Part shown: positions 3,846 to 43,177 of the stretch, in pieces
Numbering within the stretch: the stretch's first letter is position 1
Layout: each line of letters starts with the position of its first letter
Notes under the pieces: generated by a model
What the model was told of the DNA's origin: nothing
Seen by the model: the letters and a program-made list of their open reading frames with translations, nothing else
The model's database searches: none
Assembly: GCA_028711065.1 (NCBI GenBank)
Contig: JAQTSY010000001.1
Span: forward strand, 22,610 to 86,609
From: Minisyncoccota bacterium
Lineage (GTDB): Bacteria > Patescibacteriota > Minisyncoccia > Phycocordibacterales > JAQTLZ01
Direction of reading: 5' to 3'
Length of the DNA: 64,000 nt
Translations under genes and position numbers: made by a program

Positions 3846-3874
3846 GTTTTCTGCTATACTCTCGTCTAACTAAT

Positions 3875-12738: not shown

Positions 12739-12750
12739 TAGTATGGGTTT

Positions 12751-13443
12751 ATGAGCACCGACCGAAAAGTCGCCATTTTTGATGTAGACGGAACGATATT
12801 TCGTTCCAGCCTTCTTATCGAATTGGTGGAAATAATGATCGAATATGGGCTTTTTCAGGAGTCTGTGCGGGCAGATTACGAACGAGAGCGTTTGCACTGG
12901 CTTGAGAGAAAAGGGGATTACGAAGCCTATATTCAGGCCATCATAAAAGTTTTTGTCGCAAATATTAAAGGCGTTTCTTATAAAGAATTTGACGACGCTT
13001 GTACAGAAGTAGTCGCTCGGCACAAAGACAAAAATTATCGCTTTACCCGAGACCTCATCAAAGATTTGAAAAAGAAAGGTTACTACCTTCTTGCCATCTC
13101 GCAGTCTCCCAAAACAATTCTCGATAAGTTTTGCATTCCGCTCGGATTTGATAAAGTGTATGGCAGGATTTATGAGACCGGGCCTTCGGACAAATTGACT
13201 GGTGCGGTAACGGACGAACATCTCATAAGCAATAAGGCAAACATCGTGCGCAGGGCGGTACTCAAAGAAAATCTGACCCTCGAAAATTCTGTCGGAGTTG
13301 GAGACACCGAAAGTGATATCCCGTTTTTGGAAATGGTGGCTAAACCAATATGTTTTAATCCAAATTCCATGCTTTGGAAGCAGGCGAAGCGCTCTAAATG
13401 GCGAGTCGTTGTGGAAAGAAAGGATGTCGTATACGAAATATAA
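12751..13443 (+). CDS. HAD-superfamily hydrolase (subfamily IB, phosphoserine-phosphatase-like)
   Basis: 'IFDVDGTIF' HAD motif I (DxDGT) and a C-terminal 'GVGDTESDIPFL' motif III. Confidence 0.75.
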   Translation: MSTDRKVAIFDVDGTIFRSSLLIELVEIMIEYGLFQESVRADYERERLHWLERKGDYEAYIQAIIKVFVANIKGVSYKEFDDACTEVVARHKDKNYRFTRDLIKDLKKKGYYLLAISQSPKTILDKFCIPLGFDKVYGRIYETGPSDKLTGAVTDEHLISNKANIVRRAVLKENLTLENSVGVGDTESDIPFLEMVAKPICFNPNSMLWKQAKRSKWRVVVERKDVVYEI

Positions 13444-28822: not shown

Positions 28823-29224
28823 TCAGTGGGGGATATTATATCCCTCTTCGATAACACCGAGACCGAAAAGCACAGCCGCGAGCAACGTGGGAGCCTTCGT
28901 TACTTCCAAAATCTCGGTTGCCCCCACATCCGTAAAGCCCTCGGCATTGCCGCCCGAAATGACAATGATTGGGACCTCCGGACTTTGTTCCCTAATCATT
29001 CGCACGGCGTCAACGGATGATTTGTTTCGCAGACTACTGTGCACAATCACAGCAGCAATACCGGCTGATTCTGCACGGAAATCAGTTACGAGCTGCGCCG
29101 AGCTTGTGACCGGGATGATGCTTTCAAGCGGAATCCCCACCCTAGTAAGCCTCTCACAGAGAAGCTTCTTGATCTCGGGATCGCTCTCCGCAAGCATCAA
29201 CTTCATGTTCGGTGCTAACTTCAT
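28823..29224 (-). CDS. stand-alone receiver (REC, CheY-like) domain protein with non-canonical active site (pseudo-receiver?)
   Basis: REC-fold pattern 'KLMLAESDPEIKKLL...AAVIVHSSL...PIIVISG...K'. The position of the phospho-acceptor Asp appears to be occupied by His/Ser. A 'ggaggg' SD is present. Local GC-rich segment on the opposite strand to the uvr genes. Confidence 0.5.
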   Translation of the reverse strand: MKLAPNMKLMLAESDPEIKKLLCERLTRVGIPLESIIPVTSSAQLVTDFRAESAGIAAVIVHSSLRNKSSVDAVRMIREQSPEVPIIVISGGNAEGFTDVGATEILEVTKAPTLLAAVLFGLGVIEEGYNIPH

Positions 29225-29294
29225 GGCCGATGGCCCTCCATTTGGGTTTACTTGCAAAAACAGCGAGCTATACTGTATCATTCAAAACACTCTT

Positions 29295-30509
29295 ATGTCA
29301 ATAAGTCAAGAATCACTGAAAAATCTGCCCGACTCGCCCGGAGTCTACTTTTTTCGATACGGAAAAGAGATTCTTTACATCGGCAAAGCCACATCTCTTC
29401 ACGACCGAGTGAAAAGCTATTTTTCAGCTCGTCTTGGAGAGGCTCGTAGCCCGCTTATCACCAGAATGGTTGAAAAAGCGGATTCTCTTGATTTTCAGAT
29501 TACTGATTCAGTGCTCGAAGCTCTGATTCTTGAAGCCGCACTTATAAAGAAATACCAGCCAAAATACAATACGGATGAAAAAGACGATAAAAGCTACAAC
29601 TATGTCGTTTTCACAAAAGAAGATTTCCCACGAATTCTTTTGGTTCGTGGCAAAAACCTAGATTCTCTGGATTATAAAGTGAAAGATATTTTCGGTCCAT
29701 TTCCGAATGGTGGGCAGTTAAAAATTGCACTTAAAATTATTCGTAAAATTTTCCCTTATAGAGATAACTGTACTCCGCTTCAGGGAAAATTGTGTTTCAA
29801 CGCCCAAATTGGCCTTTGCCCGGGCGTATGCGATGGACAAATGGGAAAAATTGAATACGTTCGTCAAATCAGACACCTCAAACTCTTTTTTGAAGGTAAA
29901 AAGTCTGCTCTAGTGAGATCTCTTGAAAAAGAGATGAAAACCCTCGCCAAAAATCGAGAGTTTGAAAAAGCGGAAATTATTAAAAGACAGATTTTTGCCC
30001 TTGGGCACATTCAAGACGTGGCGCTTTTGCGCCCTGAAAGAGACGGAACCATTCGCGCGAATGGTTCCGTCTGGAGAATTGAGGCTTATGACGTTGCGCA
30101 TATAAGCGGAACTTCAACCGTGGGAGTCATGACTGTTGTTGAAGATGGGGAAGTGAAAAAGGCCGATTACCGAATGTTTAAAATTCGCACTGCCAAGGCA
30201 GGAAGCGATACAGGGGCACTTCAGGAAGTCCTTGAACGCAGACTGAAACACTCCGAATGGCCCACCGCAAATTTAATTGTGATTGATGGTGGAATTGCGC
30301 AAAGAAATTTGGCAGAAAAAGTATTAGAAAAGAGCGGGCTGAAAATTCCAATCATAAACGTAGTGAAAGACGATCGACACAAACCCGACCATTTTCTAGG
30401 GAGTGAATCGCTTGCTCAAAAATATAAAAAAGAAATTCTCTTAGCGAACAGCGAAGCGCACCGATTCGCAATTTCGTATCATAAAAAACTGCGAGGAATA
30501 ATCGGCTAG
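29295..30509 (+). CDS. uvrC: excinuclease ABC subunit C, short form (GIY-YIG + UVR + RNase H-like endonuclease domain; no C-terminal HhH)
   Basis: 'GVYFFRYGKEILYIGKATSLHDRVKSYF' GIY-YIG, a UVR motif 'VRSLEKEMKTLAKNREFEKAEIIKRQIFAL' and 'AYDVAHISG' are present. The protein ends at ~404 aa, before any HhH domain. Confidence 0.85.
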   Translation: MSISQESLKNLPDSPGVYFFRYGKEILYIGKATSLHDRVKSYFSARLGEARSPLITRMVEKADSLDFQITDSVLEALILEAALIKKYQPKYNTDEKDDKSYNYVVFTKEDFPRILLVRGKNLDSLDYKVKDIFGPFPNGGQLKIALKIIRKIFPYRDNCTPLQGKLCFNAQIGLCPGVCDGQMGKIEYVRQIRHLKLFFEGKKSALVRSLEKEMKTLAKNREFEKAEIIKRQIFALGHIQDVALLRPERDGTIRANGSVWRIEAYDVAHISGTSTVGVMTVVEDGEVKKADYRMFKIRTAKAGSDTGALQEVLERRLKHSEWPTANLIVIDGGIAQRNLAEKVLEKSGLKIPIINVVKDDRHKPDHFLGSESLAQKYKKEILLANSEAHRFAISYHKKLRGIIG

Positions 30510-31965: not shown

Positions 31966-32063
31966 TTCGACTCTCCTGCATGAGCAATCCCCATTGCTCA
32001 TTCGGGTCCACAAATCGAAAACCGCCTTTCGGCGGTCGATTTGTGGACCCGAGGAGAGTCGAA
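31966..32063. repeat. 28-bp inverted repeat duplicating tRNA-Ala nt 50-73 plus 8 nt of trailer, with a 25-bp hairpin insertion in the left copy
   Basis: Left arm 31966-31977 + 32003-32018 ('ttcgactctcct' ... 'cgggtccacaaatcga') is the exact reverse complement of 32036-32063. The arms surround the terminator hairpin 'ccgcc-tttc-ggcgg'. The inserted 25 nt form 'gagcaat-cccc-attgctc'. Confidence 0.6.
32010..32035 (-). terminator. intrinsic terminator of the tRNA-Ala transcript (also usable for ddl on the + strand)
   Basis: On the minus strand the tRNA trailer 'caaatcga' is followed by 'ccgcc-gaaa-ggcgg' and 'ttttcgatttg'. Confidence 0.6.
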
Positions 32064-32116
32064 CTCCTGACCTTTGCTTTGCAAAAGCACTGCTCTACCA
32101 GCTGAGCTACGGGCCC
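32044..32116 (-). tRNA. tRNA-Ala (anticodon UGC)
   Basis: Minus-strand sequence GGGCCCGTAGCTCAGCTGGTAGAGCAGTGCTTTTGCAAAGCAAAGGTCAGGAGTTCGACTCTCCTCGGGTCCA folds as a 73-nt cloverleaf. It has the G3:U70 Ala identity pair, anticodon loop tTTGCAa, a T-loop TTCGACT and discriminator A. CCA is not encoded. Confidence 0.85.
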
Positions 32117-32188
32117 TTTTTGATAACGCGATAGATTCTACACGAATTTTGATTCCGTGACAATTCTCTTAAATCGTTATCCATTTTC

Positions 32189-32497
32189 TTACTCTTGCGG
32201 CTGTCTTCTGGCCCTCTGCTTTTCCCTTTCTTCCTCTCTTTCTGCGATTTCGGAATCGCGAGTAATTTGGTTTAAGCTTTCCTTGAATTGTTCATCGCGG
32301 AATTTCAGCTGACGCATTTCTTCTTTCTCCCGCTCCAATTTCTGCTCTTTCATCGTAAGGTCAAACTTTTCTTGGCGATTTCTTCGTGTTTCATCCGCAA
32401 TTGTGACAGTTTTTTTCCTAATGTCATTTTCTAAATTTCGTATTTCATCTTCAGTTCGAACTTTTTTATTTTTAAGCTCATTTAATTTTGATTGCAT
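32189..32497 (-). CDS. hypothetical coiled-coil protein (Glu/Lys/Arg-rich, 102 aa)
   Basis: Charged heptad-like sequence 'KLNELKNKKVRTEDEIRNLENDIRKK...' in an ORF divergent from the PPDK_N operon. Confidence 0.35.
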   Translation of the reverse strand: MQSKLNELKNKKVRTEDEIRNLENDIRKKTVTIADETRRNRQEKFDLTMKEQKLEREKEEMRQLKFRDEQFKESLNQITRDSEIAEREEEREKQRARRQPQE

Positions 32498-32617
32498 ATA
32501 AGTACTATTTACTAAAAAATGAATTGGTTTTAATACCCATAATTATGCCCTTTTTTGAAACGGCTCGCAATTGTATCGGTTTGATAAACGCTAGAAAAAT
32601 GGTAAAGTGATACTCAT

Positions 32618-33571
32618 ATGAAAACAGCCTATATCAAGGCTTTTAAAGAGCTCGGGAAGGGCGATGCAGCCATTGCTGGAGGAAAAGGCGCCTCTTTGGG
32701 CGAGATGACACAAGCTAGAATACCAGTGCCGCCTGGATATGTCATCCTTTCAGCAGCTTTTGAGCATTTTCTCGAAGAGACGAATCTAAACGCGGAAATT
32801 GATACAGAACTCCATAAAGTGGATCACAAGGAAATGCACACAGTTGAGAATGCGTCCGAAACAATCCAGGCTCTTATTTTGGATGCAGATATGCCAGAGG
32901 ATATCGAAAAAGAAATTGAAACCAATTTTAAAAAGCTTGGAGCAAAATTTGTTGCTGTCCGCTCGTCAGCAACGGCCGAAGACTCTTCCGAAGCCGCCTG
33001 GGCAGGCCAGCTTGATAGCTATCTTAATACTACCGAGAAAGAACTCCTCACAAACGTAAAACGCTGTTGGGCATCACTCTTTACACCGCGAGCAATTTTC
33101 TACCGATTTGAAAAAGAACTCCACAAGCAGAAAATTTCCGTTGCAGTAGTCGTCCAGAAAATGGTTGAATCAGAAGTTTCCGGCATCGCTTTCTCCGTAC
33201 ATCCAGTTACAGAGGATTACAACCAGCTCATTATTGAGGGGGGATACGGCTTGGGTGAAGCTATCGTTTCGGGGCAGATCACGCCAGACAGCTATATCGT
33301 TGAGAAAAATCCTCGAAACATCGTGGACGTAAATATTTCTGTTCAAGAAAGAGGGCTCTTTCGTCTGCCAAAGGGTGGAAATGAATGGAGAGATGTTTCA
33401 AAAGAAGAGGGAGAGAAGCAGAAGCTATCAGGAAAACAAATCCTCGAACTTACTGAAATTATCCTTGGAATCGAGAAACACTACGGCTTCCCGTGCGATA
33501 TCGAATGGGCATTTGAAAAAGGAAAATTTTATATCGTTCAGAGCCGACCGATTACTACGCTGAAGAAATAA
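32618..33571 (+). CDS. stand-alone PEP synthase/PPDK-type N-terminal nucleotide-binding (ATP-grasp, PPDK_N) domain protein
   Basis: 'IAGGKGASLGEM' matches the PpsA/PPDK/RPH 'GGKGANLGEL' motif. The ~317-aa length matches the ATP-binding domain of rifampin phosphotransferase. Neither a His swivel nor a PEP/pyruvate TIM-barrel domain is present. Confidence 0.75.
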   Translation: MKTAYIKAFKELGKGDAAIAGGKGASLGEMTQARIPVPPGYVILSAAFEHFLEETNLNAEIDTELHKVDHKEMHTVENASETIQALILDADMPEDIEKEIETNFKKLGAKFVAVRSSATAEDSSEAAWAGQLDSYLNTTEKELLTNVKRCWASLFTPRAIFYRFEKELHKQKISVAVVVQKMVESEVSGIAFSVHPVTEDYNQLIIEGGYGLGEAIVSGQITPDSYIVEKNPRNIVDVNISVQERGLFRLPKGGNEWRDVSKEEGEKQKLSGKQILELTEIILGIEKHYGFPCDIEWAFEKGKFYIVQSRPITTLKK

Positions 33572-33573
33572 CT

Positions 33574-34971
33574 ATGAATCCCGCGCCGGAAACAAAGTGG
33601 GTAAAACTTGGAGATAGAGCCTACCTTCCTTTTTCGTTTTCATTAAATGGAAGTCAAAACTCTGCAAAGTACTTAAAAAAGTACGGAAATTTTGAGAATG
33701 AAGATAGGGCCATTATGTATCAGCATAGATTTTACTGGCCAGAGAACGAAATAGAAAAGATTGCAGACTATCAGATCCGAAGATACAGAACTCAAGGAGC
33801 AAAATACCTCTGGTCAATGGCGAAAAAATGTGAACAAGCCGGCGACGTGTTTCTCAAAAAGATAACTCGAATAATTGACAGAAAAACAGAAAATAAGTCT
33901 GAAGTCCAAGTCAACCTGTCCCTCATCATCGAAGAATACAGAAAATTTGTGGTCTTTATGACTATCCCGTGGGTACTCGATGATTTTTTCGGGCAAGAGC
34001 TCAACGAAATTCTAAACAAACGAAACCTTACGGAAAGAGTAGAAATAGAAAAGAAGCTCAATCAGCCACTAAGATTAAATGAGGGGGAGCTCGAGCAGAT
34101 ATCATTGCTCAAAATCGCGGCTTCGATGAAAAGTGTCGATGATTTTAATCCCGCGATTCTCAAAAAAATCGCCAAACATGTAAATGAATACGGATGGCTG
34201 CCAATTAGATGGTTTGTAGGAAATCCTCTGAAAGAAACAGACGTTATCGAGAGACTGAAACATGTCTTTTCGGACAATCCCCAAGAAAGATCAAAAAGTC
34301 TAAAAGATCAAGCGAAGAAAGTAAAAAAGGAAGCGGAACAAATAATTAGAGAACTCGGATTCAATGAGGAAGAATGCCAATTCGCGTATCTTCTCAAAGA
34401 ATATACGTTTATACGGACATATAGATCGGATCTTATAAACAAAGTAAATTTTATTGTCATACCCATCCTGAAAAAAGCGAGTGCTGAACTTGGAATTCCG
34501 TATAGCGACATCCTCTATTTATCATATGGAGAAATTCTTGAATGTCTTCGAGATGAAAAGAAATTAGCGCACATTACTGTTTTAAGCGGAAAAGAAGCAG
34601 AAGCATTTGCGACAAAAGAAGGAATCCTCGAGCAAAAATCTCTCAACATAAACGAGATAAAAGGGGTTACCGCATATAAGGGGAAGACTTCGGGCAAAGT
34701 TAAAATTGTCCATAACCCTAATGACATTTCCAAAGTAGAAAAAGGGGATATTTTAGTTACTACAATGACTTTTCCTTCCTATATTGCCGCGATGGAGAGG
34801 GCAGCTGCTTTTGTTACCGACGAAGGAGGCGTACTCTGTCATGCAGCCATTGTTGCTCGAGAAATGAAGAAACCGTGTGTCATTGCCACAAAGATCGCAA
34901 CAAAAGCTTTTAAAGACGGTGACATGGTAGAGGTGGATGCAGACACTGGCATCGTCAAAATAATTAAATAA
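33574..34971 (+). CDS. PEP-utilising-enzyme mobile (phosphohistidine swivel) domain protein, paralog 1, with unique ~350-aa N-terminal domain
   Basis: C-terminal 'GVTAYKGKTSGKVKIV...GDILVTTMTFPSY...DEGGVLCHAAIVAREMKKPCVIATK' matches PF00391 with its catalytic His. The N-terminal region is uncharacterised. Confidence 0.75.
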   Translation: MNPAPETKWVKLGDRAYLPFSFSLNGSQNSAKYLKKYGNFENEDRAIMYQHRFYWPENEIEKIADYQIRRYRTQGAKYLWSMAKKCEQAGDVFLKKITRIIDRKTENKSEVQVNLSLIIEEYRKFVVFMTIPWVLDDFFGQELNEILNKRNLTERVEIEKKLNQPLRLNEGELEQISLLKIAASMKSVDDFNPAILKKIAKHVNEYGWLPIRWFVGNPLKETDVIERLKHVFSDNPQERSKSLKDQAKKVKKEAEQIIRELGFNEEECQFAYLLKEYTFIRTYRSDLINKVNFIVIPILKKASAELGIPYSDILYLSYGEILECLRDEKKLAHITVLSGKEAEAFATKEGILEQKSLNINEIKGVTAYKGKTSGKVKIVHNPNDISKVEKGDILVTTMTFPSYIAAMERAAAFVTDEGGVLCHAAIVAREMKKPCVIATKIATKAFKDGDMVEVDADTGIVKIIK

Positions 34972-34972
34972 G

Positions 34973-36421
34973 ATGGAAGAAATTGACGTAACAAAAAAAT
35001 GGGAAAAAATGAGCACGCGGAAGACCCCGATTCACCGCTATTTTGATTTTGCCGAATCCGCAGCGACTGGCTTAAAGAAACTTATGGATGCCGATATTCC
35101 CCAGTCTGTTCTTATATCAAAAGGTGGAGAAGTAACCATGTATACCACAAAGGAGCGGCAGGAGAGCCTCTTTCAGATGATGGCTAAAAGGTTTAAAGAT
35201 AATGCTTTTATAGAATCGGTATTGCCAAAACTGCCCAAAGAACAGGAACTCTTAGTCGAATGGATTAAGACCAGTTGTTCTCTGAAAAAAATTGAAAATT
35301 TATCCAACACCCAATTATCCGATCTTGTTTTAAAACGGCACGAGAAACATATTGAAATTTGCGCGTGGCAGTGGCTAGGGTTTGCTGGAAAACTCTGTAT
35401 TGATGGCGTTGTTGCTGAAAAACTCAAAATATACGACTTGCCGATCGAGAAAAATTTGCAGACTATCTATGCTCATGATTATCCGGCATATGTTGTCTTG
35501 GCGGAGATGGATTTGAAACAAATTGCTCTCAAGGCGCAGAAAGGAGGAGTTGAAGAAAAAATTGACTCTCTTGTCGAGAGATATTTGAAAAAATACAACT
35601 TCATCAATATGTACGATGAGTTATATTCTCCTTCCACAAAAGAAGAAATTACTAAGCGATTGAAGGTTTACAGCAAGGACAAAAAGTTGGAGGAGGAAAT
35701 AGAGTCTTCGCTCAATACATTCAAACAAAATGCAAATTCATTCAAAGAATTTATTTTAAATACCCGCTTTTCCAAAGAAGATAGGACATTCTTTGAATTC
35801 GCACATCAGTTCGCATTATTTCATGAAACACGAAATTTCTCCAAAGGTGCGTCAGCTTTTTATTCGAAACCTTTTTTTAACGAAATTGCCAAGCGGCTGA
35901 AGTTGGATTTACAAGACCTTCTTGCTTTTAATGACTACGAAATCGCAGATGCTCTTAGCGGAATAAAAGAACTAACAATGGCAGAGGGTAAAAATCGACG
36001 CGAGTTTTGTCTGGGATTTTATTCGCAAGAAAAGTGGTTTTTTGACAGTGGAAAGCGTGCCCACGAAATCGCGGAGATAATAACAAAAATAGAGAAGGTA
36101 TCAGAACTGAAGGGGGTCGTCGCTTACAAAGGCGGAATAGTAAAGGGAAAAGTTAAACTGATAAATAGCGTGACTCAAATGGGAAAGCTTGAAAGAGGAG
36201 ATATTCTTGTTTCCTCAATGACCCGTCCGGAATTTATAACAAGTATGGAAAAGGCAGGAGCTATTATCACCGATGAGGGTGGGACTCTCTGTCACGCTGC
36301 AATCGTCGCTCGAGAGCTCAAAAAACCCTCCATTATTGGCACCAAAATTGCTACACAAATTCTTAAAGATGGGGATTTGGTAGAAGTAGATACAGACAGA
36401 GGTATAATAAGAAAATTATGA
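34973..36421 (+). CDS. PEP-utilising-enzyme mobile domain protein, paralog 2
   Basis: C-terminal 'GVVAYKGGIVKGKVKLI...GDILVSSMTRPEF...DEGGTLCHAAIVARELKKPSIIGTK'. The N-terminal domain is divergent. The start lies 2 nt after the previous stop. Confidence 0.75.
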   Translation: MEEIDVTKKWEKMSTRKTPIHRYFDFAESAATGLKKLMDADIPQSVLISKGGEVTMYTTKERQESLFQMMAKRFKDNAFIESVLPKLPKEQELLVEWIKTSCSLKKIENLSNTQLSDLVLKRHEKHIEICAWQWLGFAGKLCIDGVVAEKLKIYDLPIEKNLQTIYAHDYPAYVVLAEMDLKQIALKAQKGGVEEKIDSLVERYLKKYNFINMYDELYSPSTKEEITKRLKVYSKDKKLEEEIESSLNTFKQNANSFKEFILNTRFSKEDRTFFEFAHQFALFHETRNFSKGASAFYSKPFFNEIAKRLKLDLQDLLAFNDYEIADALSGIKELTMAEGKNRREFCLGFYSQEKWFFDSGKRAHEIAEIITKIEKVSELKGVVAYKGGIVKGKVKLINSVTQMGKLERGDILVSSMTRPEFITSMEKAGAIITDEGGTLCHAAIVARELKKPSIIGTKIATQILKDGDLVEVDTDRGIIRKL

Positions 36422-37890
36422 CCAAAGAAGAAATCATTCACGAGATAAATACTAAGAAGGACTGGTATCCAAAAAGTTATGCGGGATTTTTGTTTGGTAT
36501 TTATATGCAGGGTGAGGGACTCTCCAGGGGCTCTAAAGAAATTCCTTTGGCAATATCTTATGGCATGGTATATCAAAACCATAACCGGCAAGACCATTGG
36601 GACTGGTTTTGGAATATTGGGAAAATGATTCAGAAAAGGAATGAAATTCTTGAAAAAGCTGTTTCCGAAAAAGCCTTTGCAGATACTTATTTTAAAGCTT
36701 GGGAGAAAACCTATGAAAATTATCTCGCCGCTTTTGAAGAAGCAAAAGAACTAGACTTGAATTCCTTGTACGAAATTCTCTCTCTGAAATTTAGGAAATT
36801 ATACGAAACACTCATCGCGCAGGCGGCATACGGATATGTCGTTGATACCTTTCTCACCGCCGAAGACAGCGATTGGCTCGTAGAAGAAATAAAAAATGAA
36901 CTTCGAGAGAAAGCGACACCGGAAGTGATAGCTACCCTTACTGCTCCAGTTTTTCATTCGTTTATCGGAGAATTCAATGAGCGGATCCGAAAACTTGCTC
37001 TCTCTATCCGAGACAAGCGGGATAGCGAAAACATACAGAAAGAAGCTTTAAAGATCACGAAAGAATTTTTTTGGATAAAAACAAATTACCGCGATTACGG
37101 ACGGATTACACAAGAGCAAGTTTTGCATGAGGCCAGCCAGCTCCTCGATAAATCCTCATCTCTTTCTGAAAGCGCGGACCATTCTGAAAAAAACAGGACG
37201 GAAAAAGATCGAATACTAGAGTCATTTAACGCTTCCGCGCGCCTTCGCCGCATACTTCATATTTCCGAACTTTTCACCCATATTCAGGATAAGCGCAAAG
37301 AATGTGTGCTTCGCAATAACAGCCTTTTTTTCGAATTTCTCGAAACAATAGCGAAACGAGAATCGGTAGATAAGAAACTTTTTTTCTATTCAACTTCCCA
37401 GGAATTTTTCTCGTTTTTGAAAGGAATACCTCTTCCAACACACCTTATTGAAAAACGTATACATGAGGGAGTGATGGTTCTTTTTTCTAATGACACCTCT
37501 TATCTCATGTATAAAGAAGAGATCGACAGTTCTCTTAAAAGCGAGCATCTCTTTCCTAATCTTCAGAATGTGACAGAACTCCGCGGCTCAATTGCCTTTA
37601 AAGGAAAAGTGAAGGGAACTGTTCGCGTGCTCCGCAATACTACCGAGATCAATACTTTCGGAGAAGGGCAGATTCTCGTTGCCAACCAAACCACGCCAGA
37701 ATTTGTCCCTGCTATGAAAAAAGCTGCGGCCATTGTTACCGACCAGGGAGGAATTACCTGCCATGCTGCTATCGTTGCCCGTGAGCTTAAAAAGCCCTGT
37801 ATCATTGGTACAAAAAATGCGACCCAAGTTTTGAAAGATGGTGATGTTGTAGAAGTGGATGCGGAGAAGGGAATTGTAAGAATTTTATAA
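36418..37890 (+). CDS. PEP-utilising-enzyme mobile domain protein, paralog 3
   Basis: C-terminal 'GSIAFKGKVKGTVRVL...GQILVANQTTPEF...DQGGITCHAAIVARELKKPCIIGTK'. It overlaps the previous gene by 4 nt (ATGA). Confidence 0.75.
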   Translation: MTKEEIIHEINTKKDWYPKSYAGFLFGIYMQGEGLSRGSKEIPLAISYGMVYQNHNRQDHWDWFWNIGKMIQKRNEILEKAVSEKAFADTYFKAWEKTYENYLAAFEEAKELDLNSLYEILSLKFRKLYETLIAQAAYGYVVDTFLTAEDSDWLVEEIKNELREKATPEVIATLTAPVFHSFIGEFNERIRKLALSIRDKRDSENIQKEALKITKEFFWIKTNYRDYGRITQEQVLHEASQLLDKSSSLSESADHSEKNRTEKDRILESFNASARLRRILHISELFTHIQDKRKECVLRNNSLFFEFLETIAKRESVDKKLFFYSTSQEFFSFLKGIPLPTHLIEKRIHEGVMVLFSNDTSYLMYKEEIDSSLKSEHLFPNLQNVTELRGSIAFKGKVKGTVRVLRNTTEINTFGEGQILVANQTTPEFVPAMKKAAAIVTDQGGITCHAAIVARELKKPCIIGTKNATQVLKDGDVVEVDAEKGIVRIL

Positions 37891-37893
37891 AGC

Positions 37894-39318
37894 ATGGAAA
37901 AAGAGTTACTGCTTAATCCAAATACTGAACTTTTTCGATGGGGACCGACACCGGGCCGAAATTTTCTAATCGGGGATATTTTAGACATCATTGTCACTCG
38001 ATACGTAGATTTATACCCTGGATATGGATGGCCTGATTTTATGTTTCTCTATAAAGAAGGAAGATTTATCTATGTCTGCAGTTTTCCAGAGATTCGGGAA
38101 GCTGGAAAGAAGACATTCTTGAAATTCATAATACCCGAAAATACACGAGAGCATGAAATTGCTTTATGGGAAAAGAAAATACAAGAAGTTCTCCGCTGGG
38201 AAGAAAAAATTACTCACCCTGACCTAAAAAAACTTTCGGAGAAGGATTTTCTAACACTTTGGAAAGATTTCCACCATGCAATCGGCGATTTTTGGATACA
38301 TTCACAAATACCCGAGATTGCGAATTATGGTTCATCAGTCCTTTTAGAAGAAAAACTCCGAGAATTTATCAAAAAGAAAGATGAACTTGCTCATGCAATG
38401 GAGATACTTACCGCACCTGAAGAATATTCTTTCTATCAGGAGGAAGAACTGGAGCTTGCGGAAACGTCCGATCTGAAAGCTCATGCCGATAAATACTTCT
38501 GGATTCAAAACAGCTATGCAAATGTCGAGACAGCAAAAGTAGCATTTTTCCAAAAGCGGAAAAAAGAGTTACAAAGCAATTTTCGAGAAGAAGCGGAAAA
38601 AAGAATACAAAAAGTTAGGAGAGAAAAAATTGAACTTCAAGAGAAGTATGGCTTGCCAAAAGAAATTATGGATGTAGCAGAAGCCCTTGTCGCAAGCATT
38701 GTGTGGCAAGACAGGAGAAAACGCTATATTTGGGAACAACTCCACTACAAACAAATCCTGATCGAAGAGATGTCTCGAAGATTCAATATTCTTGTTTCAG
38801 ATCTTTATAATTTTACTGCGGGGGAAATCCTGGATCTTTTGTATAGAAAATCCCGCGAAAAAGATATCGAGCAAAGAAGAAAGACGTTTGCTTTTATTTC
38901 CGCCAAAAAAGACAAATATATCTATGGAATTGAGGCAGAAAAAGCTTGGGATACCTATGTACAGGACAAGGCTCCCGAGAATACGAAAGAATTCGGCGGT
39001 ATTATCGCGAGCAAAGGAAAAATATTAAAAATAGAGGGAAGAGCGCGCATAGTGCTTGATCCAAAAAACGCTCACGATTTTGAAAAAGGTGAAATATTAG
39101 TCGCTCCGATGACGAGCCCAGATTTTGTGTTCCTCATGAAAGAGGCGGGAGCTATCGTCACTGACAACGGAGGATTAACCTCGCATGCGGCAATTACCTC
39201 GCGGGAACTCCATAAAACATGTATCGTTGGGACAAGAATTGCTACAAAAGTGTTAAAAGACGGAGATATGATTGAGGTGGATGCTAATAGTGGTACTATT
39301 AGAATATTAAATAACTAA
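37894..39318 (+). CDS. PEP-utilising-enzyme mobile domain protein, paralog 4
   Basis: C-terminal 'GGIIASKGKILKIEGRARIV...GEILVAPMTSPDF...DNGGLTSHAAITSRELHKTCIVGTR'. The N-terminal domains of paralogs 2-4 share an 'FFWI.(T/N)NY' motif. Confidence 0.75.
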   Translation: MEKELLLNPNTELFRWGPTPGRNFLIGDILDIIVTRYVDLYPGYGWPDFMFLYKEGRFIYVCSFPEIREAGKKTFLKFIIPENTREHEIALWEKKIQEVLRWEEKITHPDLKKLSEKDFLTLWKDFHHAIGDFWIHSQIPEIANYGSSVLLEEKLREFIKKKDELAHAMEILTAPEEYSFYQEEELELAETSDLKAHADKYFWIQNSYANVETAKVAFFQKRKKELQSNFREEAEKRIQKVRREKIELQEKYGLPKEIMDVAEALVASIVWQDRRKRYIWEQLHYKQILIEEMSRRFNILVSDLYNFTAGEILDLLYRKSREKDIEQRRKTFAFISAKKDKYIYGIEAEKAWDTYVQDKAPENTKEFGGIIASKGKILKIEGRARIVLDPKNAHDFEKGEILVAPMTSPDFVFLMKEAGAIVTDNGGLTSHAAITSRELHKTCIVGTRIATKVLKDGDMIEVDANSGTIRILNN

Positions 39319-39327
39319 GCAATATCT

Positions 39328-40485
39328 ATGAGTGAAAACAATGAGGCGGGGCCACAAATAGGAGCAAGTTGGGAGGGTTATTCAGAGGGAGAGGCGCTAG
39401 AACGTTTGAGACAACTAGGTATAAAGCCGGAATTAGCTTTTTCGATTGAAGACGAAAAAAATCTTAAAGGAGAGAAGGTGAATGCTGAAATTTTCTGGAC
39501 CAAAATAGGGAAACCCGATGGAGAAGAATTTGCTGATCTTGTTCCTGTCGAATCAAAAATCTATTTGCCAAAAGAAAATGCTAATGGCGAACTCATTCTC
39601 TTTACTCCCGGTTTCCCCGGAGGAAACGCGGGACGATTTGAACAAAGATATGCGAAAGATTTTACAGACGCTGGCTATGCATTTGCAACAATCCGGCATA
39701 ATGGGACATCACTCACCAATGGCAAAACATCAGCAGAGATCATGAACTCGCCGAAACGCACAGAGATTGCAAAACAGGCGGGAGAACATCATCTCGGCGG
39801 CACGCGACCGGAAGGATATACGCCTCGCCAGATGATTGATGAGCCGGTTGGAGTACTTTTAGCTCTTCAGGAAAAATTCAAAAGGGTACACCTCATGGGG
39901 CAGTCAATGGGTGTCGCTTCGAGCTACAACACGGCTACAAGATTAAAAAATCATCCTGAAGTGACAGACAAAATAGGAAACATTGTGGGAATCGCGGGTT
40001 ATGTGGGAGGAACCGATGGTGTTCCGGACGGCATATGGGAAGGTATGAAAGATTTTGACGGGGGCGGAAAATATCCAAATGGAATGGATGGGCTTATCGC
40101 GTACGAGCTAGACTACGTAAAAAAAGTTGACCTCAATTTCGCTCTGAATGCAGATCAATTCAAACAATCGCTTAAAGAGGTCGCGGAGAAAAATGCCGAA
40201 ATGGAAGTGCCGGAACATGTCGGGAATGTTCTCGTCTTTTGTCCTGGCGATCCGCTTATTGCTGGACCAAAAGCAAAAACAGGCGAAGAGCTTTTACAAT
40301 ACGGACCAGAAACAAAGAGAAAAGCTGTTATTGAAGATTTAAGCATGCCCGAATCAGAAAAAGCAAAAGCACATTCTATGCTTTGGATAGAGCCGGAAAA
40401 TTTGATCCGCGCAGTCGAGGCGAAAGTTTCATCTCATGGGCCACATTACTTCACGGTTGGGGGTAAAAAAGAACAAAATGGCTAA
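39328..40485 (+). CDS. alpha/beta-hydrolase fold protein
   Basis: 'HLMGQSMGVASS' nucleophile elbow (GxSxG) with the preceding 'LILFTPGFPGG' strand. Confidence 0.5.
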   Translation: MSENNEAGPQIGASWEGYSEGEALERLRQLGIKPELAFSIEDEKNLKGEKVNAEIFWTKIGKPDGEEFADLVPVESKIYLPKENANGELILFTPGFPGGNAGRFEQRYAKDFTDAGYAFATIRHNGTSLTNGKTSAEIMNSPKRTEIAKQAGEHHLGGTRPEGYTPRQMIDEPVGVLLALQEKFKRVHLMGQSMGVASSYNTATRLKNHPEVTDKIGNIVGIAGYVGGTDGVPDGIWEGMKDFDGGGKYPNGMDGLIAYELDYVKKVDLNFALNADQFKQSLKEVAEKNAEMEVPEHVGNVLVFCPGDPLIAGPKAKTGEELLQYGPETKRKAVIEDLSMPESEKAKAHSMLWIEPENLIRAVEAKVSSHGPHYFTVGGKKEQNG

Positions 40486-41263
40486 ATCAAAAATAAAAAA
40501 ATATTTTGTAGAAAGTGCTGGAAAAAAGGTTTTTGTACAAGTTGAATATCCGTCCAAAGTTCCAGCTCCAGCTATCATCGTGGGGCATGGCTTACGCTCT
40601 TACTACACGGGGTTTCTGAATATCTTTGCTAAAAAGCTGCGCGACGAGGGTTATATCAGCGTAAAATTTCATTTTATAGGGACCGGAAAAAGCGAGGGAC
40701 TATTTGAAGAAAAAAGCACGGCGACTATGGTGCAAAATTTCAAAGATGTTATTGCATATCTCAAAACACTTCCTGAAATCACTGATATCGGGGTCATGGG
40801 AAGAAGTAATGCGGGTTCTCTCGCCGCACTTGCCGGCCCAATTGAGAGAGTAAAATCCTACGTGCTTTTGGGCTCTCCTGCTTTCTATTCGTTGAACATG
40901 AAGAAATTTCTTGAGATGGCTGATACAACAAAAGGAGAATATTTCTACCATAGCTCTTTTAAAAGAAAACACACAAAGGGAGAGGGAAGACTTCCTTTGA
41001 GTTTCTTGGAAGAAATCGGAACATTCGATAAGAGGCTTCTTGAAGGAATTAAAAAGCTCAAAAACGTCTGCCTTCTCCAAAGCAAAGTAGACGAAGCTGT
41101 ACCTGTAGAGGAAGGTCATTTTGACTACTGGAAAGAAAATCTTCCAAAACCAAATTGGACAAAGATAATGGAGAAGGGCAAAAATCACAGCTTCAAAGGC
41201 TGCAAAGCTGAAGTGTACCAAGATGCAATCACTTGGTTTCGGAAAACCCTGCCTATAAGATAG
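40478..41263 (+). CDS. alpha/beta-hydrolase fold protein (dienelactone-hydrolase/BAAT-like)
   Basis: 'IIVGHGLRS' followed by nucleophile elbow 'GVMGRSNAGSLAA'. It overlaps the upstream hydrolase by 8 nt (ATGGCTAA). Confidence 0.5.
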   Translation: MAKSKIKKYFVESAGKKVFVQVEYPSKVPAPAIIVGHGLRSYYTGFLNIFAKKLRDEGYISVKFHFIGTGKSEGLFEEKSTATMVQNFKDVIAYLKTLPEITDIGVMGRSNAGSLAALAGPIERVKSYVLLGSPAFYSLNMKKFLEMADTTKGEYFYHSSFKRKHTKGEGRLPLSFLEEIGTFDKRLLEGIKKLKNVCLLQSKVDEAVPVEEGHFDYWKENLPKPNWTKIMEKGKNHSFKGCKAEVYQDAITWFRKTLPIR

Positions 41264-41293
41264 GCCTAATACAGAAAGGAGAGGTTAGAAATT

Positions 41294-41335
41294 ATAAAAA
41301 CGTAAAACACCGCAAGCCTTCTAGGTTGCGGTGTT
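41294..41335 (-). terminator. intrinsic terminator (minus strand) after the SixA-like gene; hairpin shared with the + strand operon end
   Basis: A 10-bp stem 'aacaccgcaa...ttgcggtgtt' is preceded on the + strand by 'aaaaacgtaaa', which is the T-run on the minus strand. Confidence 0.6.
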
Positions 41336-41363
41336 CGTCTGACAGTTTGTACTCGAATCGGAC

Positions 41364-41948
41364 TTATTCAACGATGGTGAGCACGCCGGTATCCTTATTG
41401 AAGTCAAAGACAACGAAGCCTTTGGCTGTCAGCTTGGAACTCAGCACCACCTCCAGCAGGCGTTCGGCATTGAAGCTCGCCCCGCTCGCCATGTCCACCA
41501 ACGCCCCGATAATCGGGCGGTGGCTCACGACAAGAATCGTCTGCCCGGACTTTACTTCAGTGTGGAACTTCGCCAGGACGCGTTTCGCGCTCTCGTGCCA
41601 TGCGAGACATCCTTCGCCCTCATACCCTGGTAGAAACGCTTCGGCAACGACTTTTCCGTCGACCACATCACCCGAGCCGTGCTGGCCCAAGTCATTGATG
41701 GTCTCGAAGTCGATGTCGAGTGCGTTCGCCAAGAGCGACATGGCATCGAGCGCCCGCGCCATGCGTGAGCTGAACGCCTGTCCGTAAGGCCCCTGCGCCT
41801 TAATCGCGTCGATGAGTTTGGCGACTTTCACCATTCCATCGACAGTCATGGGCGGATTGGCCGCGACGAGCGCCAACACCTTTCCAATGATCCCTTCATG
41901 TTTCGGACCATGGAAAACGGCGACGATCCTCAAAATATTTTCGTTCAC
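41364..41948 (-). CDS. histidine-phosphatase-superfamily protein (SixA/phosphoglycerate-mutase-like, divergent)
   Basis: 'IVAVFHGPKHEG' sits at the position of the RHG motif, with R replaced by F. A second His motif 'ILVVSHRPIIGAL' is present. GC-rich. Confidence 0.4.
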   Translation of the reverse strand: MNENILRIVAVFHGPKHEGIIGKVLALVAANPPMTVDGMVKVAKLIDAIKAQGPYGQAFSSRMARALDAMSLLANALDIDFETINDLGQHGSGDVVDGKVVAEAFLPGYEGEGCLAWHESAKRVLAKFHTEVKSGQTILVVSHRPIIGALVDMASGASFNAERLLEVVLSSKLTAKGFVVFDFNKDTGVLTIVE

Positions 41949-42172
41949 GAGTAACCCTCCGTTGTTTTAAATCCCAATCCTTTTCAAGAGCCAGATTTCC
42001 GAAAGGAAACCTAAAAAGAGCCCTGAAAAAGGAACCTGCTACCTAGCATTATAGCATATTCATATCTTTTGTCAATGTATTCATGAGCCCGCTTACCTTG
42101 CTTTTTCATGACTAAAGAGTAACCTTTTATTTTAGGGTTCTAGATGTACAAAAGGGGAAACCAACAAAGGGG

Positions 42173-43177
42173 GTGGACATGTCTACCACAAATGCTGTGC
42201 AGATCGTCGGCGTAAAGGATTACACCTTCGAGATGCTCATGCGGATTTTCAAGCTCGCAGATGGGTACCGGGACGCTCTGGCGCAGAGAAAGTTTGAGGA
42301 GCTGAAAGTGCTCAGAAACTGCTTGGCATTCAACTACTTCTACAGCCCCTCGACGCGCACTCGGACATCGTTCGACGTCGCCATGGAGAGGCTTGGAATG
42401 ATCGTTGAATGGTCGGAAGCCGCCGGGCAATTTTCGAAGACGGTGCAGGGAGAGATCCTCGAACACTCCGTGCGCATCTACTGCGGCTACGGCGCGGATG
42501 TATTTGTCCTCCGGCATGGAGACGATGACGCCGCCGAACGGGCATCAGTTGTGTGCAAAGAGATGGGCGTGCCGTTTCTGAACGCCGGAAGCGGTTCTCG
42601 CGAACATCCAACGCAGTTTGCGCTTGATTTCTACATCATGCTCCAGGATCTCATGGAGCGCGGACTTGTGGAGCAGATCACCAACAGGCACGTCCTCGCC
42701 AAGAGACCGATCAATCTCCTAGTGAGCATGGACCCGGAATTTGGCCGGACAATTCGTTCCGTGGTCCGCGGGCTGGCTCGATTTTTGCGGCCGCTTCGTG
42801 TTTGGGCCTGGGCGCCGTCAATTCTGACTCTTGGAGAAGACATTCTCCGGGAACTCGAAGATTTGGGGGTTCCTTTCGAGGGATATGTGACTGACGTGCG
42901 GAGGATTTTGCCGATGATCGACATCCACTATCATCAGCGTCCTCAATATGAACGGATGTCGCCGGAAAAAAGGAAAATCGTCGAGATGAACGAGCCAAGC
43001 TTCAAGGTCGGCCTCCATGAGATGGCACTTCTTGGAGGATTACTCTATCATCCGATGCCCATCGTGAACGAGGTCGACAGGGCAGTGGATACCCACCCCA
43101 AGGCTCGCTACTTCCCACAAGCTGCTTGGGGCTTGCCGGTGCGGATGGGAAATCTGGTAGAAGTCGTCAGGCGATAG
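42173..43177 (+). CDS. aspartate/ornithine carbamoyltransferase-family protein (ATCase-like)
   Basis: 'YSPSTRTRTSFDVAMERLG' matches the STRTR carbamoyl-phosphate-binding motif. 'HPTQ' (HPxQ) and a C-terminal 'HPMP' (cf. HPLP of ATCase) are present. GC-rich with an atypical N-terminus. Strong SD 'gggggtgg'. Confidence 0.7.
   Translation: MDMSTTNAVQIVGVKDYTFEMLMRIFKLADGYRDALAQRKFEELKVLRNCLAFNYFYSPSTRTRTSFDVAMERLGMIVEWSEAAGQFSKTVQGEILEHSVRIYCGYGADVFVLRHGDDDAAERASVVCKEMGVPFLNAGSGSREHPTQFALDFYIMLQDLMERGLVEQITNRHVLAKRPINLLVSMDPEFGRTIRSVVRGLARFLRPLRVWAWAPSILTLGEDILRELEDLGVPFEGYVTDVRRILPMIDIHYHQRPQYERMSPEKRKIVEMNEPSFKVGLHEMALLGGLLYHPMPIVNEVDRAVDTHPKARYFPQAAWGLPVRMGNLVEVVRR

Follow-up and report, generated by a model that had tools for sequence, protein, structure and literature searches.

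The question raised by this locus is why a single stand-alone ATP-grasp protein (AG) is encoded beside four different proteins (S1-S4) that each end in a phosphohistidine swivel domain, and what such a set of proteins does. Our analyses indicate that seven ORFs at 32618-41263 on the forward strand (viz. AG, S1-S4, and two hydrolases, H1 and H2), all located where the original prediction had placed them, form one tight operon, and that this operon probably specifies an ATP-dependent dikinase for small molecules, a two-component, multi-module system of the RPH/HpeHI type. The features of the locus are as follows.

32581..32608, + strand: promoter-like site (TTGATA, 16-nt spacer, TAAAGT, extended TG), from a consensus scan only
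32618..33571, + strand: AG, stand-alone ATP-grasp (PPDK_N) protein, 317 aa, Pfam PF01326
33574..34971, + strand: S1, module 1, 465 aa, PF00391 E 2.1e-25
34973..36421, + strand: S2, module 2, 482 aa, PF00391 E 9.6e-23
36418..37890, + strand: S3, module 3, 490 aa, PF00391 E 9.2e-29
37894..39318, + strand: S4, module 4, 474 aa, swivel preceded by a substrate-binding domain of the RPH type (about residues 1-360)
39328..40485, + strand: H1, alpha/beta serine hydrolase, 385 aa, from predicted fold and triad
40478..41263, + strand: H2, second alpha/beta hydrolase, 261 aa from its likely start, Pfam Hydrolase_4 and Peptidase_S15
41306..41335, + strand: GC-rich hairpin (AACACCGCAAGCC...GGTTGCGGTGTT) at the operon end, read from the sequence
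41364..41948, - strand: histidine-phosphatase superfamily (branch 1) gene, 194 aa, Pfam His_Phos_1 E 1e-6

The dikinase genes are separated by a 2-nt gap (AG/S1), a 1-nt gap (S1/S2), a 4-nt overlap (S2/S3) and a 3-nt gap (S3/S4); the earlier description of 2-nt gaps and 4-nt overlaps is correct for the first and third of these junctions and not for the other two. The promoter-like site ends 10 nt 5' of the AG gene, a consensus match of a kind that does not imply function. The longest ORF for H2 begins at 40436 and the protein is 261 aa long in both the Logan and NCBI calls; its start is most likely at 40478, and H2 therefore overlaps H1 by 8 nt, in agreement with the two overlapping hydrolases expected after S4. 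The hairpin, which is missing from the consensus terminator scan list because it has no T-run, is a possible terminator common to the operon and the convergent gene.

AG consists of a PPDK_N domain and nothing else, as had been proposed: PF01326 matches it with an E value of 1.8e-100 over model positions 3-313 of 328, and the GGKGASLGEM motif occupies residues 21-30. Its matches in the PDB are an archaeal PEP synthase (8a8e, 3.5e-74), RPH (5hv6/5hv1, ~1e-65) and 9goj (6.6e-55), a 387-aa chain deposited under the name phosphoenolpyruvate synthase, which is probably HpeI and thus a stand-alone ATP-grasp precedent for AG.

Each of the four module proteins ends in one PF00391 domain (E ~1e-23 to 1e-29) with the swivel fold and its catalytic His intact, as anticipated for these ~470-aa ORFs. 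The His residues are H423 in S1 (codon 34840-34842; motif GGVLCHAAI), H441 in S2 (36293-36295; GGTLCHAAI), H449 in S3 (37762-37764; GGITCHAAI) and H431 in S4 (39184-39186; GGLTSHAAI), all within the GG..[CS]HAAI motif found in swivel domains. No Pfam family matches the first ~350-390 aa of S1-S4, and a PEP/pyruvate TIM barrel was not detected by Pfam in any operon protein. The N-terminal domains, which are mutually only about 20% identical, are linked neither to RPH nor to one another by sequence alone. They nevertheless carry two motifs at conserved spacing and one Arg that is invariant in all four (Arg284 in the TYRS of S1), a candidate counterpart of the essential Arg666 of RPH. The motif FFWIxxNY, earlier assigned to paralogs 2-4, is exact in S3 (FFWIKTNY, accompanied by QDKRK) and differs in S2 (YNFINMY) and S4 (YFWIQNSY); the corresponding S1 motif is YGWLPIRW. 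When aligned by hhalign with the S4-family profile, S2 matches over 420 columns (nearly full length), S3 over 301, and S1 over 254, the last from profile column 195 onward and covering both YGWLPIRW and TYRS, which suggests that the S1 N-terminal domain is a divergent helical domain of the substrate type. In clustering of the N-terminal domains, 259 of 345, including those of S1-S4, fall in one connected cluster, in line with S1-S3 having the same type of domain as S4. The predicted model of S4 matches RPH across both the substrate and swivel domains, and among solved structures RPH alone matches the N-terminal domain of S4.

The original prediction of an RPH-like phosphotransferase split after its ATP-grasp domain is also borne out by fused relatives. 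AG residues 5-315 align colinearly with residues 3-311, and S4 residues 10-472 with residues 325-787, of P0061, a fused 791-aa protein of Woesearchaeota, to whose N-terminal domain AG is 67% identical; judged from this alignment, the split point between AG and S4 is the exact ATP-grasp domain boundary of an RPH-like dikinase. The proposal that one kinase module serves several carriers receives strong Rosetta-stone support from natural fusions in which a single ORF contains one ATP-grasp domain and three (L012), four (L022) or seven modules, the last (L025) being a 3363-aa ORF with one PPDK_N and seven PEP-utilizers domains, all distinct, and no Ns. By extension, AG would pair with S1, S2 and S3 as well as S4, and thus charge all four modules.

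Characterised two-component dikinases (viz. PpsAB, phenylphosphate synthase; PasAB, phenylphosphoamidate synthase; CreHI; AcvAB; and HpeHI) likewise have their ATP-grasp on a subunit of its own (~35-40 kDa), paired with a protein that carries a substrate domain of the RPH type and a C-terminal swivel His, and they act by a ping-pong mechanism via (pyro)phospho-His in a transient complex. By analogy, with PpsAB, HpeHI and RPH as precedents for the mechanism, we infer dikinase chemistry on small molecules for the operon. MgATP would be bound by the 317-aa AG, and the swivel of any one of S1-S4 would dock transiently on it, its His attacking the beta-phosphate to yield pyrophospho-His and AMP. 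After hydrolysis of the gamma-phosphate, the swivel would swing back to the N-terminal helical domain of the same protein. A site with a conserved Arg would position the phospho-His in that domain, and a small molecule bound to it would receive the phosphate on a hydroxyl (or similar nucleophile). Given how dissimilar the N-terminal domains are, each module would have its own substrate, and the operon would therefore comprise one conserved engine for a replaceable set of specificity modules. The role that we favour is that an ultra-small symbiont would in this way trap or neutralise the membrane-permeant compounds it encounters.

The operon differs from these dikinases in several respects. They are 1:1 systems with a His subunit of ~70 kDa, whereas here one ATP-grasp gene accompanies four modules of ~53-56 kDa; they belong to the PRK08296 clade and act on phenolic or aniline substrates in aromatic catabolic operons with carboxylases, whereas the present operon has no carboxylase and its relatives occur in CPR/DPANN hosts. 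The PRK08296 NCBIfam matches hardly extend beyond the swivel region (60-103 bits versus cut-offs of 578-730), and at position -2 from the His most swivels of the arrays have a PEPS-type Thr where the two-component dikinases have Met. RPH (PDB 5FBS/5FBT/5HV1), in which the swivel His bridges two distant active sites and an Arg and a Glu of the substrate domain are essential, has the identical three domains in identical order; however, it is a single chain with 15-19% sequence identity, and its model NF041857 (cut-off 999) gives 286 bits for AG and 52-78 bits for the S proteins. RPH binds rifamycin, but the operon proteins show no sign of doing so and nothing points to the rifamycins once suggested as substrates. 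PEP synthase is nearest in sequence for the ATP-grasp and swivel domains, and GG.T[CS]HAAI includes the Thr that is regulatory in PEPS/PPDK, but here the PEP/pyruvate TIM barrel is lacking and the swivel lies at the C-terminus, after a helical domain of the RPH type. The sugar PTS, in which one Enzyme I/HPr serves many Enzymes II, offers an analogy only: the swivel and its Enzyme I counterpart are homologous, but the donor would be ATP rather than PEP, membrane components and HPr are lacking, and specificity domain and carrier His reside on one protein.

The arrangement recurs in relatives, for which the original prediction had proposed a survey. Among 83 related CPR/DPANN loci (359 modules, 267 junctions), the median is 4 modules per locus and the maximum 15, two ATP-grasp hits share a locus in only 2 cases, and 164 of the 267 junctions are of at most 20 nt; within the sequence stretch examined per locus, an ATP-grasp is absent from 23 of the 42 loci with at least four modules. 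In the syntenic relative L084, the stand-alone ATP-grasp is 89% identical to AG (ATP-synthase range for comparison, 77-97%), S4 is 40% identical, and S1-S3 have no orthologs. Close relatives differ in module content, and the pattern is one of a conserved engine with variable modules. The system had been called previously uncharacterised; this does not hold for the split itself, for which the five systems above are precedents, but the 1:N sharing of one ATP-grasp seems to be new and undescribed. Across ultra-small bacteria and archaea this shared-engine layout is widespread and changes fast, yet it is unstudied.

The relatives also contain an argument for a different, though unlikely, reading, namely that only S4 pairs with AG as a 1:1 dikinase and that S1-S3 are diverged paralogs with some other function, for example regulators, decoys, enzymes that exchange phosphate between phosphorylated compounds, or proteins that work with an ATP-grasp encoded elsewhere. 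In every 1+1 pair (L004, L020, L026, L027) and every single-module fused chain (P0061, L011, L034) the module is S4-type, so that AG might serve S4 alone; S4 is conserved far better than any other module and is probably the ancestral partner type. Further, S1 and S2 have Leu instead of Thr at position -2, and HpeH by itself is able to shift phosphate between substrates. However, the modules in the 1+3, 1+4 and 1+7 fusions are mutually distinct, S1-S3 retain all invariant swivel residues and lie between AG and S4 at the close spacing described above, and no further ATP-grasp or swivel ORF occurs in the window (the whole 64-kb stretch of DNA analysed). With TIM barrels lacking too, the analysis showed no other domain that could donate the phosphoryl group.

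A role of the modules as protein kinases or in a phosphorelay (cf. VadK and PTS Enzyme I), in which their N-terminal domains would recognise different proteins, is quite improbable. PPDK-derived enzymes can acquire regulatory kinase roles, as is reported for M. tuberculosis VadK, the swivels resemble PEPS and PTS-type domains most closely, most with the PEPS/PPDK-type Thr, and Fic-domain genes recur next to the arrays. Yet the N-terminal domains fold like the ligand-binding domain of RPH, every characterised relative that has this domain (RPH, PigC/RedH/HapC, PpsA, HpeH, CreH, AcvA) acts on small molecules, and no conserved candidate acceptor protein adjoins the arrays. We consider it very improbable that the modules are condensing enzymes like PigC/RedH, in which phosphorylation would activate a carbonyl or hydroxyl and a second substrate displace the phosphate in a biosynthetic pathway. 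The fold class (ATP-grasp, helical substrate domain, swivel) is shared, the NCBIfam RedH model aligns with S4 residues 236-473 (~240 residues), and for other modules the PigC and RedH alignments cover shorter C-terminal parts; these scores, like all NCBIfam scores of the operon proteins, are far below cut-off (63-78 bits for the S proteins and 240-244 for AG versus 1300-1350). PigC/RedH/HapC are, however, single-chain enzymes of pigment gene clusters, whereas this reduced CPR genome has housekeeping genes and hydrolases nearby and no PKS, NRPS or pyrrole-pathway genes, and module content that varies between close relatives fits a fixed pathway poorly. Decayed ppsA/ppdK fragments or frameshift/assembly artefacts, which PGAP-style names ("PEP-utilizing enzyme", "PEP/pyruvate-binding domain-containing protein") and the lack of NCBI protein accessions for S3 and S4 might suggest, are effectively refuted by intact ORFs with a complete swivel in each module, the absence of TIM-barrel remnants, hundreds of full-length orthologs, the conserved ATP-grasp (stand-alone in about 20 further related loci) and recovery of the same genes in an independent Logan assembly.

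H1, which has no Pfam or NCBIfam match, is an alpha/beta hydrolase according to its AF2 model (pLDDT 89.2; Foldseek matches to generic lipases and esterases, E ~1e-8), with a GQSMG elbow containing Ser193 (codon 39904-39906) and with Asp308 and His349, a triad invariant in 30 homologs. H2 matches Hydrolase_4 at 29.0 bits (cut-off 27). H1 genes occur within the arrays of L068, L084, L085 and L086 and beside the 1+1 pair of L027, and H2 accompanies H1 in L068, L084 and L085; such hydrolases are associated with arrays only in the Pacebacteria-like lineage. The suggestion that they process phosphorylated products is not upheld, serine hydrolases not being phosphatases and their linkage to arrays being lineage-limited; they are lineage-specific accessories and may unmask or process substrates. 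HD, HAD and histidine phosphatases are commoner neighbours and recur across lineages. The histidine-phosphatase gene at 41364..41948, convergent with the operon, has a counterpart of its family at the same position in L084, inside the L086 array and in 7 other array loci, and, although it lies outside the operon transcript, its product is possibly associated with the operon.

The region from 32618 to 41263 carries an operon of seven close-set ORFs on the forward strand, whose junctions are gaps of 1–9 nt or overlaps of 4–8 nt, with a promoter-like site immediately 5′ of the operon and a GC-rich hairpin 3′ of its last gene. The ORFs encode a stand-alone ATP-grasp protein (AG), four modules that each carry a swivel domain (S1–S4) and two alpha/beta hydrolases (H1 and H2):

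32618–33571, forward strand, AG
33574–34971, forward strand, S1
34973–36421, forward strand, S2
36418–37890, forward strand, S3
37894–39318, forward strand, S4
39328–40485, forward strand, H1
40436/40478–41263, forward strand, H2 (two start positions)

The ratio of AG to swivel-module genes is 1:4, and no other ORF in the 64-kb window encodes an ATP-grasp or swivel domain. The operon is bordered on the left by ddl and a tRNA-Ala gene and on the right by a convergent histidine-phosphatase gene, an ATCase-like gene and the ATP-synthase operon; no carboxylase is found among the flanking genes. Identical proteins occur in an NCBI MAG labelled Candidatus Pacebacteria/Paceibacterota, which makes the host a CPR bacterium; their names there are "PEP/pyruvate-binding domain-containing protein", "PEP-utilizing enzyme" and "alpha/beta hydrolase". 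AG, S1, S2 and H2 have the accessions MDD5050168, -169, -170 and -172, respectively; S3 and S4 (36418–39318) have no NCBI protein accession and are present only in Logan, which may be due to pseudogene marking by PGAP or to missed calls.

AG consists of a complete PPDK_N ATP-grasp domain (Pfam PF01326, E 1.8e-100) and contains no other domain. It matches an archaeal PEP synthase structure (E 3.5e-74), RPH (rifampin phosphotransferase) ATP-grasp structures (E ~1e-65; 7.6e-66 for 5hv6) and 9goj (E 6.6e-55), a 387-aa chain deposited as phosphoenolpyruvate synthase that is probably the structure of HpeI; AG is a separate subunit akin to the nucleotide-binding domain of RPH and PEPS. A fused 791-aa protein from Woesearchaeota (P0061) is colinear with the operon: AG residues 5–315 align with its residues 3–311 (67% identity) and S4 residues 10–472 with its residues 325–787 (41% identity). 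Judged from this alignment, the split between AG and the S modules falls at a domain boundary and is genuine. The identity of AG to P0061 is far above that expected under vertical descent, which suggests transfer between CPR and DPANN. Stand-alone ATP-grasp genes of 295–380 aa occur alongside such modules in ~20 further loci, and this recurrence, together with the 89% identity of AG in a relative, excludes the alternative that AG is a frameshift artefact or part of a decayed ppsA gene.

Each of S1–S4 ends in its own single PEP-utilizers domain, the swivel (E 1e-23 to 1e-29), with the catalytic His in the motif GG..[CS]HAAI. Profile searches revealed no pieces of a TIM barrel in these modules, and none of the seven proteins matched the PEP/pyruvate TIM barrel (PF02896) at E <= 0.1. 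The first 350–390 residues, which form the N-domain, match no Pfam family. The AlphaFold model of S4 (pLDDT 93.6, pTM 0.90; 45 homologs used) matched RPH in Foldseek searches with E 6e-13 to 1e-11 over 460–568 columns and a query-normalised TM-score of 0.51–0.59, and HpeH, the subunit that carries the His in a characterised two-component dikinase, has been reported to stand in the same relation to RPH. S4 has the arrangement expected of a partner protein, with the RPH-type substrate-binding domain in front of a C-terminal swivel that carries the catalytic His. The NCBIfam models for RPH, PRK06241 and RedH align with S4 from approximately residue 229–236 onward, far under their cut-offs. The domain content, the S4 fold and the colinearity with the fused form bear out the structural part of the original prediction, which had read the operon as an RPH-like phosphotransferase split after the ATP-grasp domain.

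The N-domains of the four modules are only ~20% identical to one another and their swivel domains 49–59% identical. No pairwise similarity between the N-domains was detected by phmmer at E <= 10; against a profile of the S4 family, S1, S2 and S3 aligned over 254, 420 and 301 columns, respectively, deep into the N-domain. Two motifs whose spacing is conserved are shared by the four N-domains, one of the [FY]xW[IL] type (YGWL, YNFI, FFWI and YFWI in S1 to S4) and one of the QDxRK type (TYRS, ETRN, QDKRK and QDRRK), with one Arg invariant in all four. Further, when 345 N-domains from related loci were clustered by similarity, 259 fell into a single connected cluster, to which all of S1–S4 belong. 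The profile alignment, the shared motifs and this transitive clustering indicate a common origin of the S1–S4 N-domains. In the S4 family, Q272, D273, R275 and K276 are invariant. The second phosphotransfer of RPH requires Arg666/Glu667 and involves Lys670, and the sub-cut-off NCBIfam alignments place the segment with the QDxRK-type basic motif near RPH residue ~670, a candidate correspondence at the level of individual residues; RPH was not among the matches when S4 residues 180–380 were compared with the PDB by phmmer. The residue two positions before the catalytic His is Thr in S3 and S4 and Leu in S1 and S2, and a Thr at this position (TCH or TSH) is present in 260 of the 359 modules from the related loci L001–L086. 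Thr at this position is a regulatory phosphorylation site in PEPS and PPDK; RPH and HpeH carry Met. A second size class of modules (~335–365 aa), with an N-domain of only 200–300 aa, occurs mixed with the ~470–520-aa class in L001, L006, L039, L041, L042, L051 and other loci; the window has none of this class.

A survey of related genomes found the arrangement of one ATP-grasp protein with several modules to be recurrent. ORFs were scanned in 77 loci from species-representative genomes and in loci from metagenome contigs, giving 83 loci after removal of duplicates. S4 orthologs number in the hundreds (37–47% identity) in Patescibacteria and DPANN archaea, and the S4 N-domain alone retrieved 747 cluster representatives at E <= 0.001. 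The 83 loci contain 359 swivel modules (median 4 per locus, maximum 15); 42 loci hold four modules or more, and two ATP-grasp matches in the same locus were seen in only 2 cases. Adjacent genes are separated by 20 nt or less at 164 of 267 junctions. The forms range from 1+1 pairs (L004, L020, L026, L027) and single fused chains (L011, L034, L073, L078) to arrays with one ATP-grasp gene (e.g., L042, L062, L048, L006, L039) and giant ORFs:

L025, 1883–11974, forward strand, 3363 aa, one PPDK_N and seven PEP-utilizers domains (Pfam)
L022, 2762–9928, 2388 aa, one ATP-grasp domain and 4 modules
L012, 5091–10004, 1637 aa, one ATP-grasp domain and 3 modules
L017, 1–8814, 2937 aa, at least 8 modules, interrupted by the contig end

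The seven modules of L025 are mutually distinct (N-domains 16–29% identical) and the locus is free of Ns, so this fusion is not an artefact of repeat assembly. The natural fusions in L025, L022 and L012 provide Rosetta-stone evidence that one ATP-grasp domain serves several modules, and we infer that AG would likewise cross-charge all modules of its operon.

The related locus L084 shares synteny with the window from AG through the array, H1, H2, the histidine-phosphatase gene and the ATCase-like gene to ATP synthase, and it has six modules, as against four in the window.

Identity between the window and L084
ATP-synthase subunits: 77–97%
AG: 89%
H1: 63%
H2: 53%
S4 and its best L084 counterpart: 40%
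ATCase-like gene: 24%
S1–S3: no ortholog in L084 (top matches 35% or less, mostly in the swivel)
Histidine phosphatase: no match

The identity of 89% for AG as against 40% or less for S1–S4 indicates that the engine evolves like a housekeeping gene, whereas the specificity modules are replaced or diverge very fast. The histidine-phosphatase and ATCase-like genes diverge far more than the ATP-synthase genes, and hence the variable island may reach beyond the operon. Among the fetched loci, the nearest N-domain relatives of S1–S3 belong to other lineages, archaeal MAGs included, and on sequence evidence the S modules appear to draw on a pool common to CPR and DPANN. Neither a diversity-generating retroelement (DGR) nor recent gene conversion was accepted as an explanation for the diversity of the modules, as positions 32000–42000 lack long direct or inverted repeats and contain only chance-level matches of 20–34 nt. 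Carriage by phages was likewise rejected: a scan of viral contigs gave only generic swivel matches (query residues ~360–470) and no S4-type N-domain. An anti-phage defence system fared no better: when all seven proteins were scanned with PADLOC, the only match at E <= 0.01 was HEC-03A (0.0086), which was judged insignificant.

H1 belongs to no family recognisable by sequence, and its model (pLDDT 89.2) is clearly an alpha/beta hydrolase, with 1123 PDB matches at E <= 1e-3, of which the top ones are all alpha/beta hydrolases (generic lipases/esterases). Its nucleophile elbow is GQSMG and its triad (S193, D308, H349) is invariant. H2 narrowly passes the cut-off of Hydrolase_4 (29.0 bits vs. 27) and scores 24.9 against 23 for Peptidase_S15, so that both proteins belong to the alpha/beta hydrolase superfamily, with the triad evidence coming from H1. 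H1, mostly with H2, lies inside the arrays of L068, L084, L085 and L086, and in L027 it stands beside the 1+1 pair; only 37 homologs of H1 were found in 5.8 billion clusters. The few homologs and the recurring array setting indicate that the link between H1 and the arrays is real but lineage-specific. Across lineages, the genes that recur near the arrays encode an HD-domain protein, immediately 5′ of S4-type genes in 11 loci, and histidine phosphatases, present in 7 loci besides the window, L084 and L086; HAD phosphatases recur in 6 loci and an uncharacterised family of ~350 aa in 8, and Fic, PTA_PTB and TrmB-type regulator genes recur as well. The phosphohydrolases beside the arrays recall AcvF, the phosphohydrolase of the acetovanillone pathway that is found beside a dikinase. 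NCBIfam searches with the HD, His_Phos_1, HAD, Fic and ~350-aa neighbours gave only generic sub-threshold matches. The Fic-domain (AMPylase-type) genes adjoin or sit inside arrays in five loci (L018:11463–12503, L019:4802–5860, L039:193–1233, L050:11854–12474 and L085:6201–7193).

To our knowledge, the split dikinases of RPH type, an enzyme subfamily recognised not long ago, have been studied solely as 1:1 pairs attacking phenolic compounds, and the characterised enzymes with an RPH-type substrate domain known to us all act on hydroxyls of hydrophobic/aromatic, membrane-permeant compounds. By analogy, the locus may work in the same way as the two-component dikinases PpsAB, CreHI, AcvAB and HpeHI. 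However, these have one His-carrier per ATP-grasp gene and lie in an aromatic-catabolic operon (with carboxylase and phosphatase), and the present operon differs on both counts. It also falls outside the PpsA/HpeH clade (PRK08296), whose characterised members share ~40–45% identity: the best scores are 60–103 bits against cut-offs of 578–730, and the matches are essentially limited to the swivel region. RPH is a single chain (ATP-grasp, RIF-binding domain, swivel), whereas the operon genes are split, and of the models that define RPH membership (NCBIfam NF041857 and NF000283), NF041857 scored 286 bits for AG and 52–78 bits for S1–S4 against a cut-off of 999. The PEP_synth and PRK06464 models gave 97–338 bits against cut-offs of 598–740, covering only the ATP-grasp domain or the swivel. 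The locus is neither an RPH nor a PEP synthase. The novelty claimed in the original prediction does not extend to the two-component split, known for PpsAB since 2004 and for HpeHI in 2025; it would hold for the 1:N shared engine, as literature searches on PEP-utilizing/PF00391/PF01326 or phenylphosphate synthase in Patescibacteria/CPR/DPANN yielded no description of 1:N arrays. One DPANN study named such genes phenylphosphate synthase and noted that the carboxylase was absent there. Besides the shared engine, we could not find a description of the megaprotein fusions, the hypervariability or the CPR/DPANN distribution of this locus type.

Based on homology with PpsAB, HpeHI and RPH, AG would bind MgATP and the swivel His of a module would attack the beta-phosphate, with the gamma-phosphate leaving as Pi and AMP being released; the phospho-His would then swing to the N-domain of the same module and phosphorylate a small molecule bound there. 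The operon would encode a dikinase of several specificities, its nucleotide subunit shared by four (elsewhere up to fifteen) unlike N-domains. A broader reading, which we advance tentatively and would not yet call probable, is that CPR and DPANN share and exchange a modular chemical-handling system in which a slowly evolving engine charges 4–15 RPH-like modules of fast turnover, each phosphorylating a different membrane-permeant molecule, for defence or for nutrient trapping. In defence, metabolites of hosts or competitors and antibiotics would be inactivated; in trapping, phosphorylation would capture diverse nutrients for cells that lack biosynthesis, and HpeHI has been proposed to trap hydrophobic/aromatic membrane-permeant compounds inside the cell. 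Both roles alike would be compatible with rapid turnover of modules in cells that depend on a host.

In the operon and the 83 related loci, one conserved ATP-binding subunit is accompanied by numerous substrate modules that diverge strongly from one another, and the genomes are among the smallest and least understood. Annotation of these genes at present goes no further than "PEP-utilizing enzyme", or they have been taken for genes of phenol degradation. If the modules differ in substrate, they would offer a handle on what CPR/DPANN cells take from, or resist in, their hosts and surroundings, a natural plug-and-play kinase usable for biocatalytic phosphorylation, and a possible environmental reservoir of RPH-related antibiotic-modifying enzymes. 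The heptamodular fusions are ready constructs for structures of one ATP site serving several swivels. If the chemical-handling reading is true, the system, in places fused into megaproteins of up to seven modules, would be the first dikinase in which one nucleotide subunit is shared across several specificities; at up to ~2% of a ~1-Mb genome (a typical size is assumed), it would also represent a major and so far unrecognised investment by ultra-small symbionts.

Some minor observations concern the related loci and the surroundings of the operon. MAGs labelled "uncultured Gammaproteobacteria" (L023, L031, L044, L062, L065, L068, L072, L076, L080) and "uncultured Methanosarcinales" (L008, L037, L040, L042) carry typical CPR/DPANN-type arrays, and these labels look wrong; an example is L068, which shares synteny with the Pacebacteria window (H1 E 2e-133). 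On the Magasanikbacteria contig of L004, two four-helix-bundle genes (3545–3916 and 12414–12785; 23S_rRNA_IVP, weakly bAvd-like) flank the HD/S4/ATP-grasp cluster; bAvd-like proteins are DGR accessory factors. In the window, the histidine-phosphatase gene (41364–41948, reverse strand) and the ATCase-like gene (42173–43177) have a GC content of 0.46–0.48 vs. ~0.41. Between ddl and the operon lie the tRNA-Ala (TGC) gene (32043–32116, reverse strand) and a 102-aa ORF (32189–32497, reverse strand) that is extremely charged and coiled-coil-like and has no Pfam match. The longest uvrC ORF (28823–30509 region) begins with a GTG at 28887 and has an N-terminal extension of ~140 aa that overlaps a 152-aa ORF (28823–29281, reverse strand) weakly matching a response regulator (E 0.019); the real uvrC start is probably further downstream.
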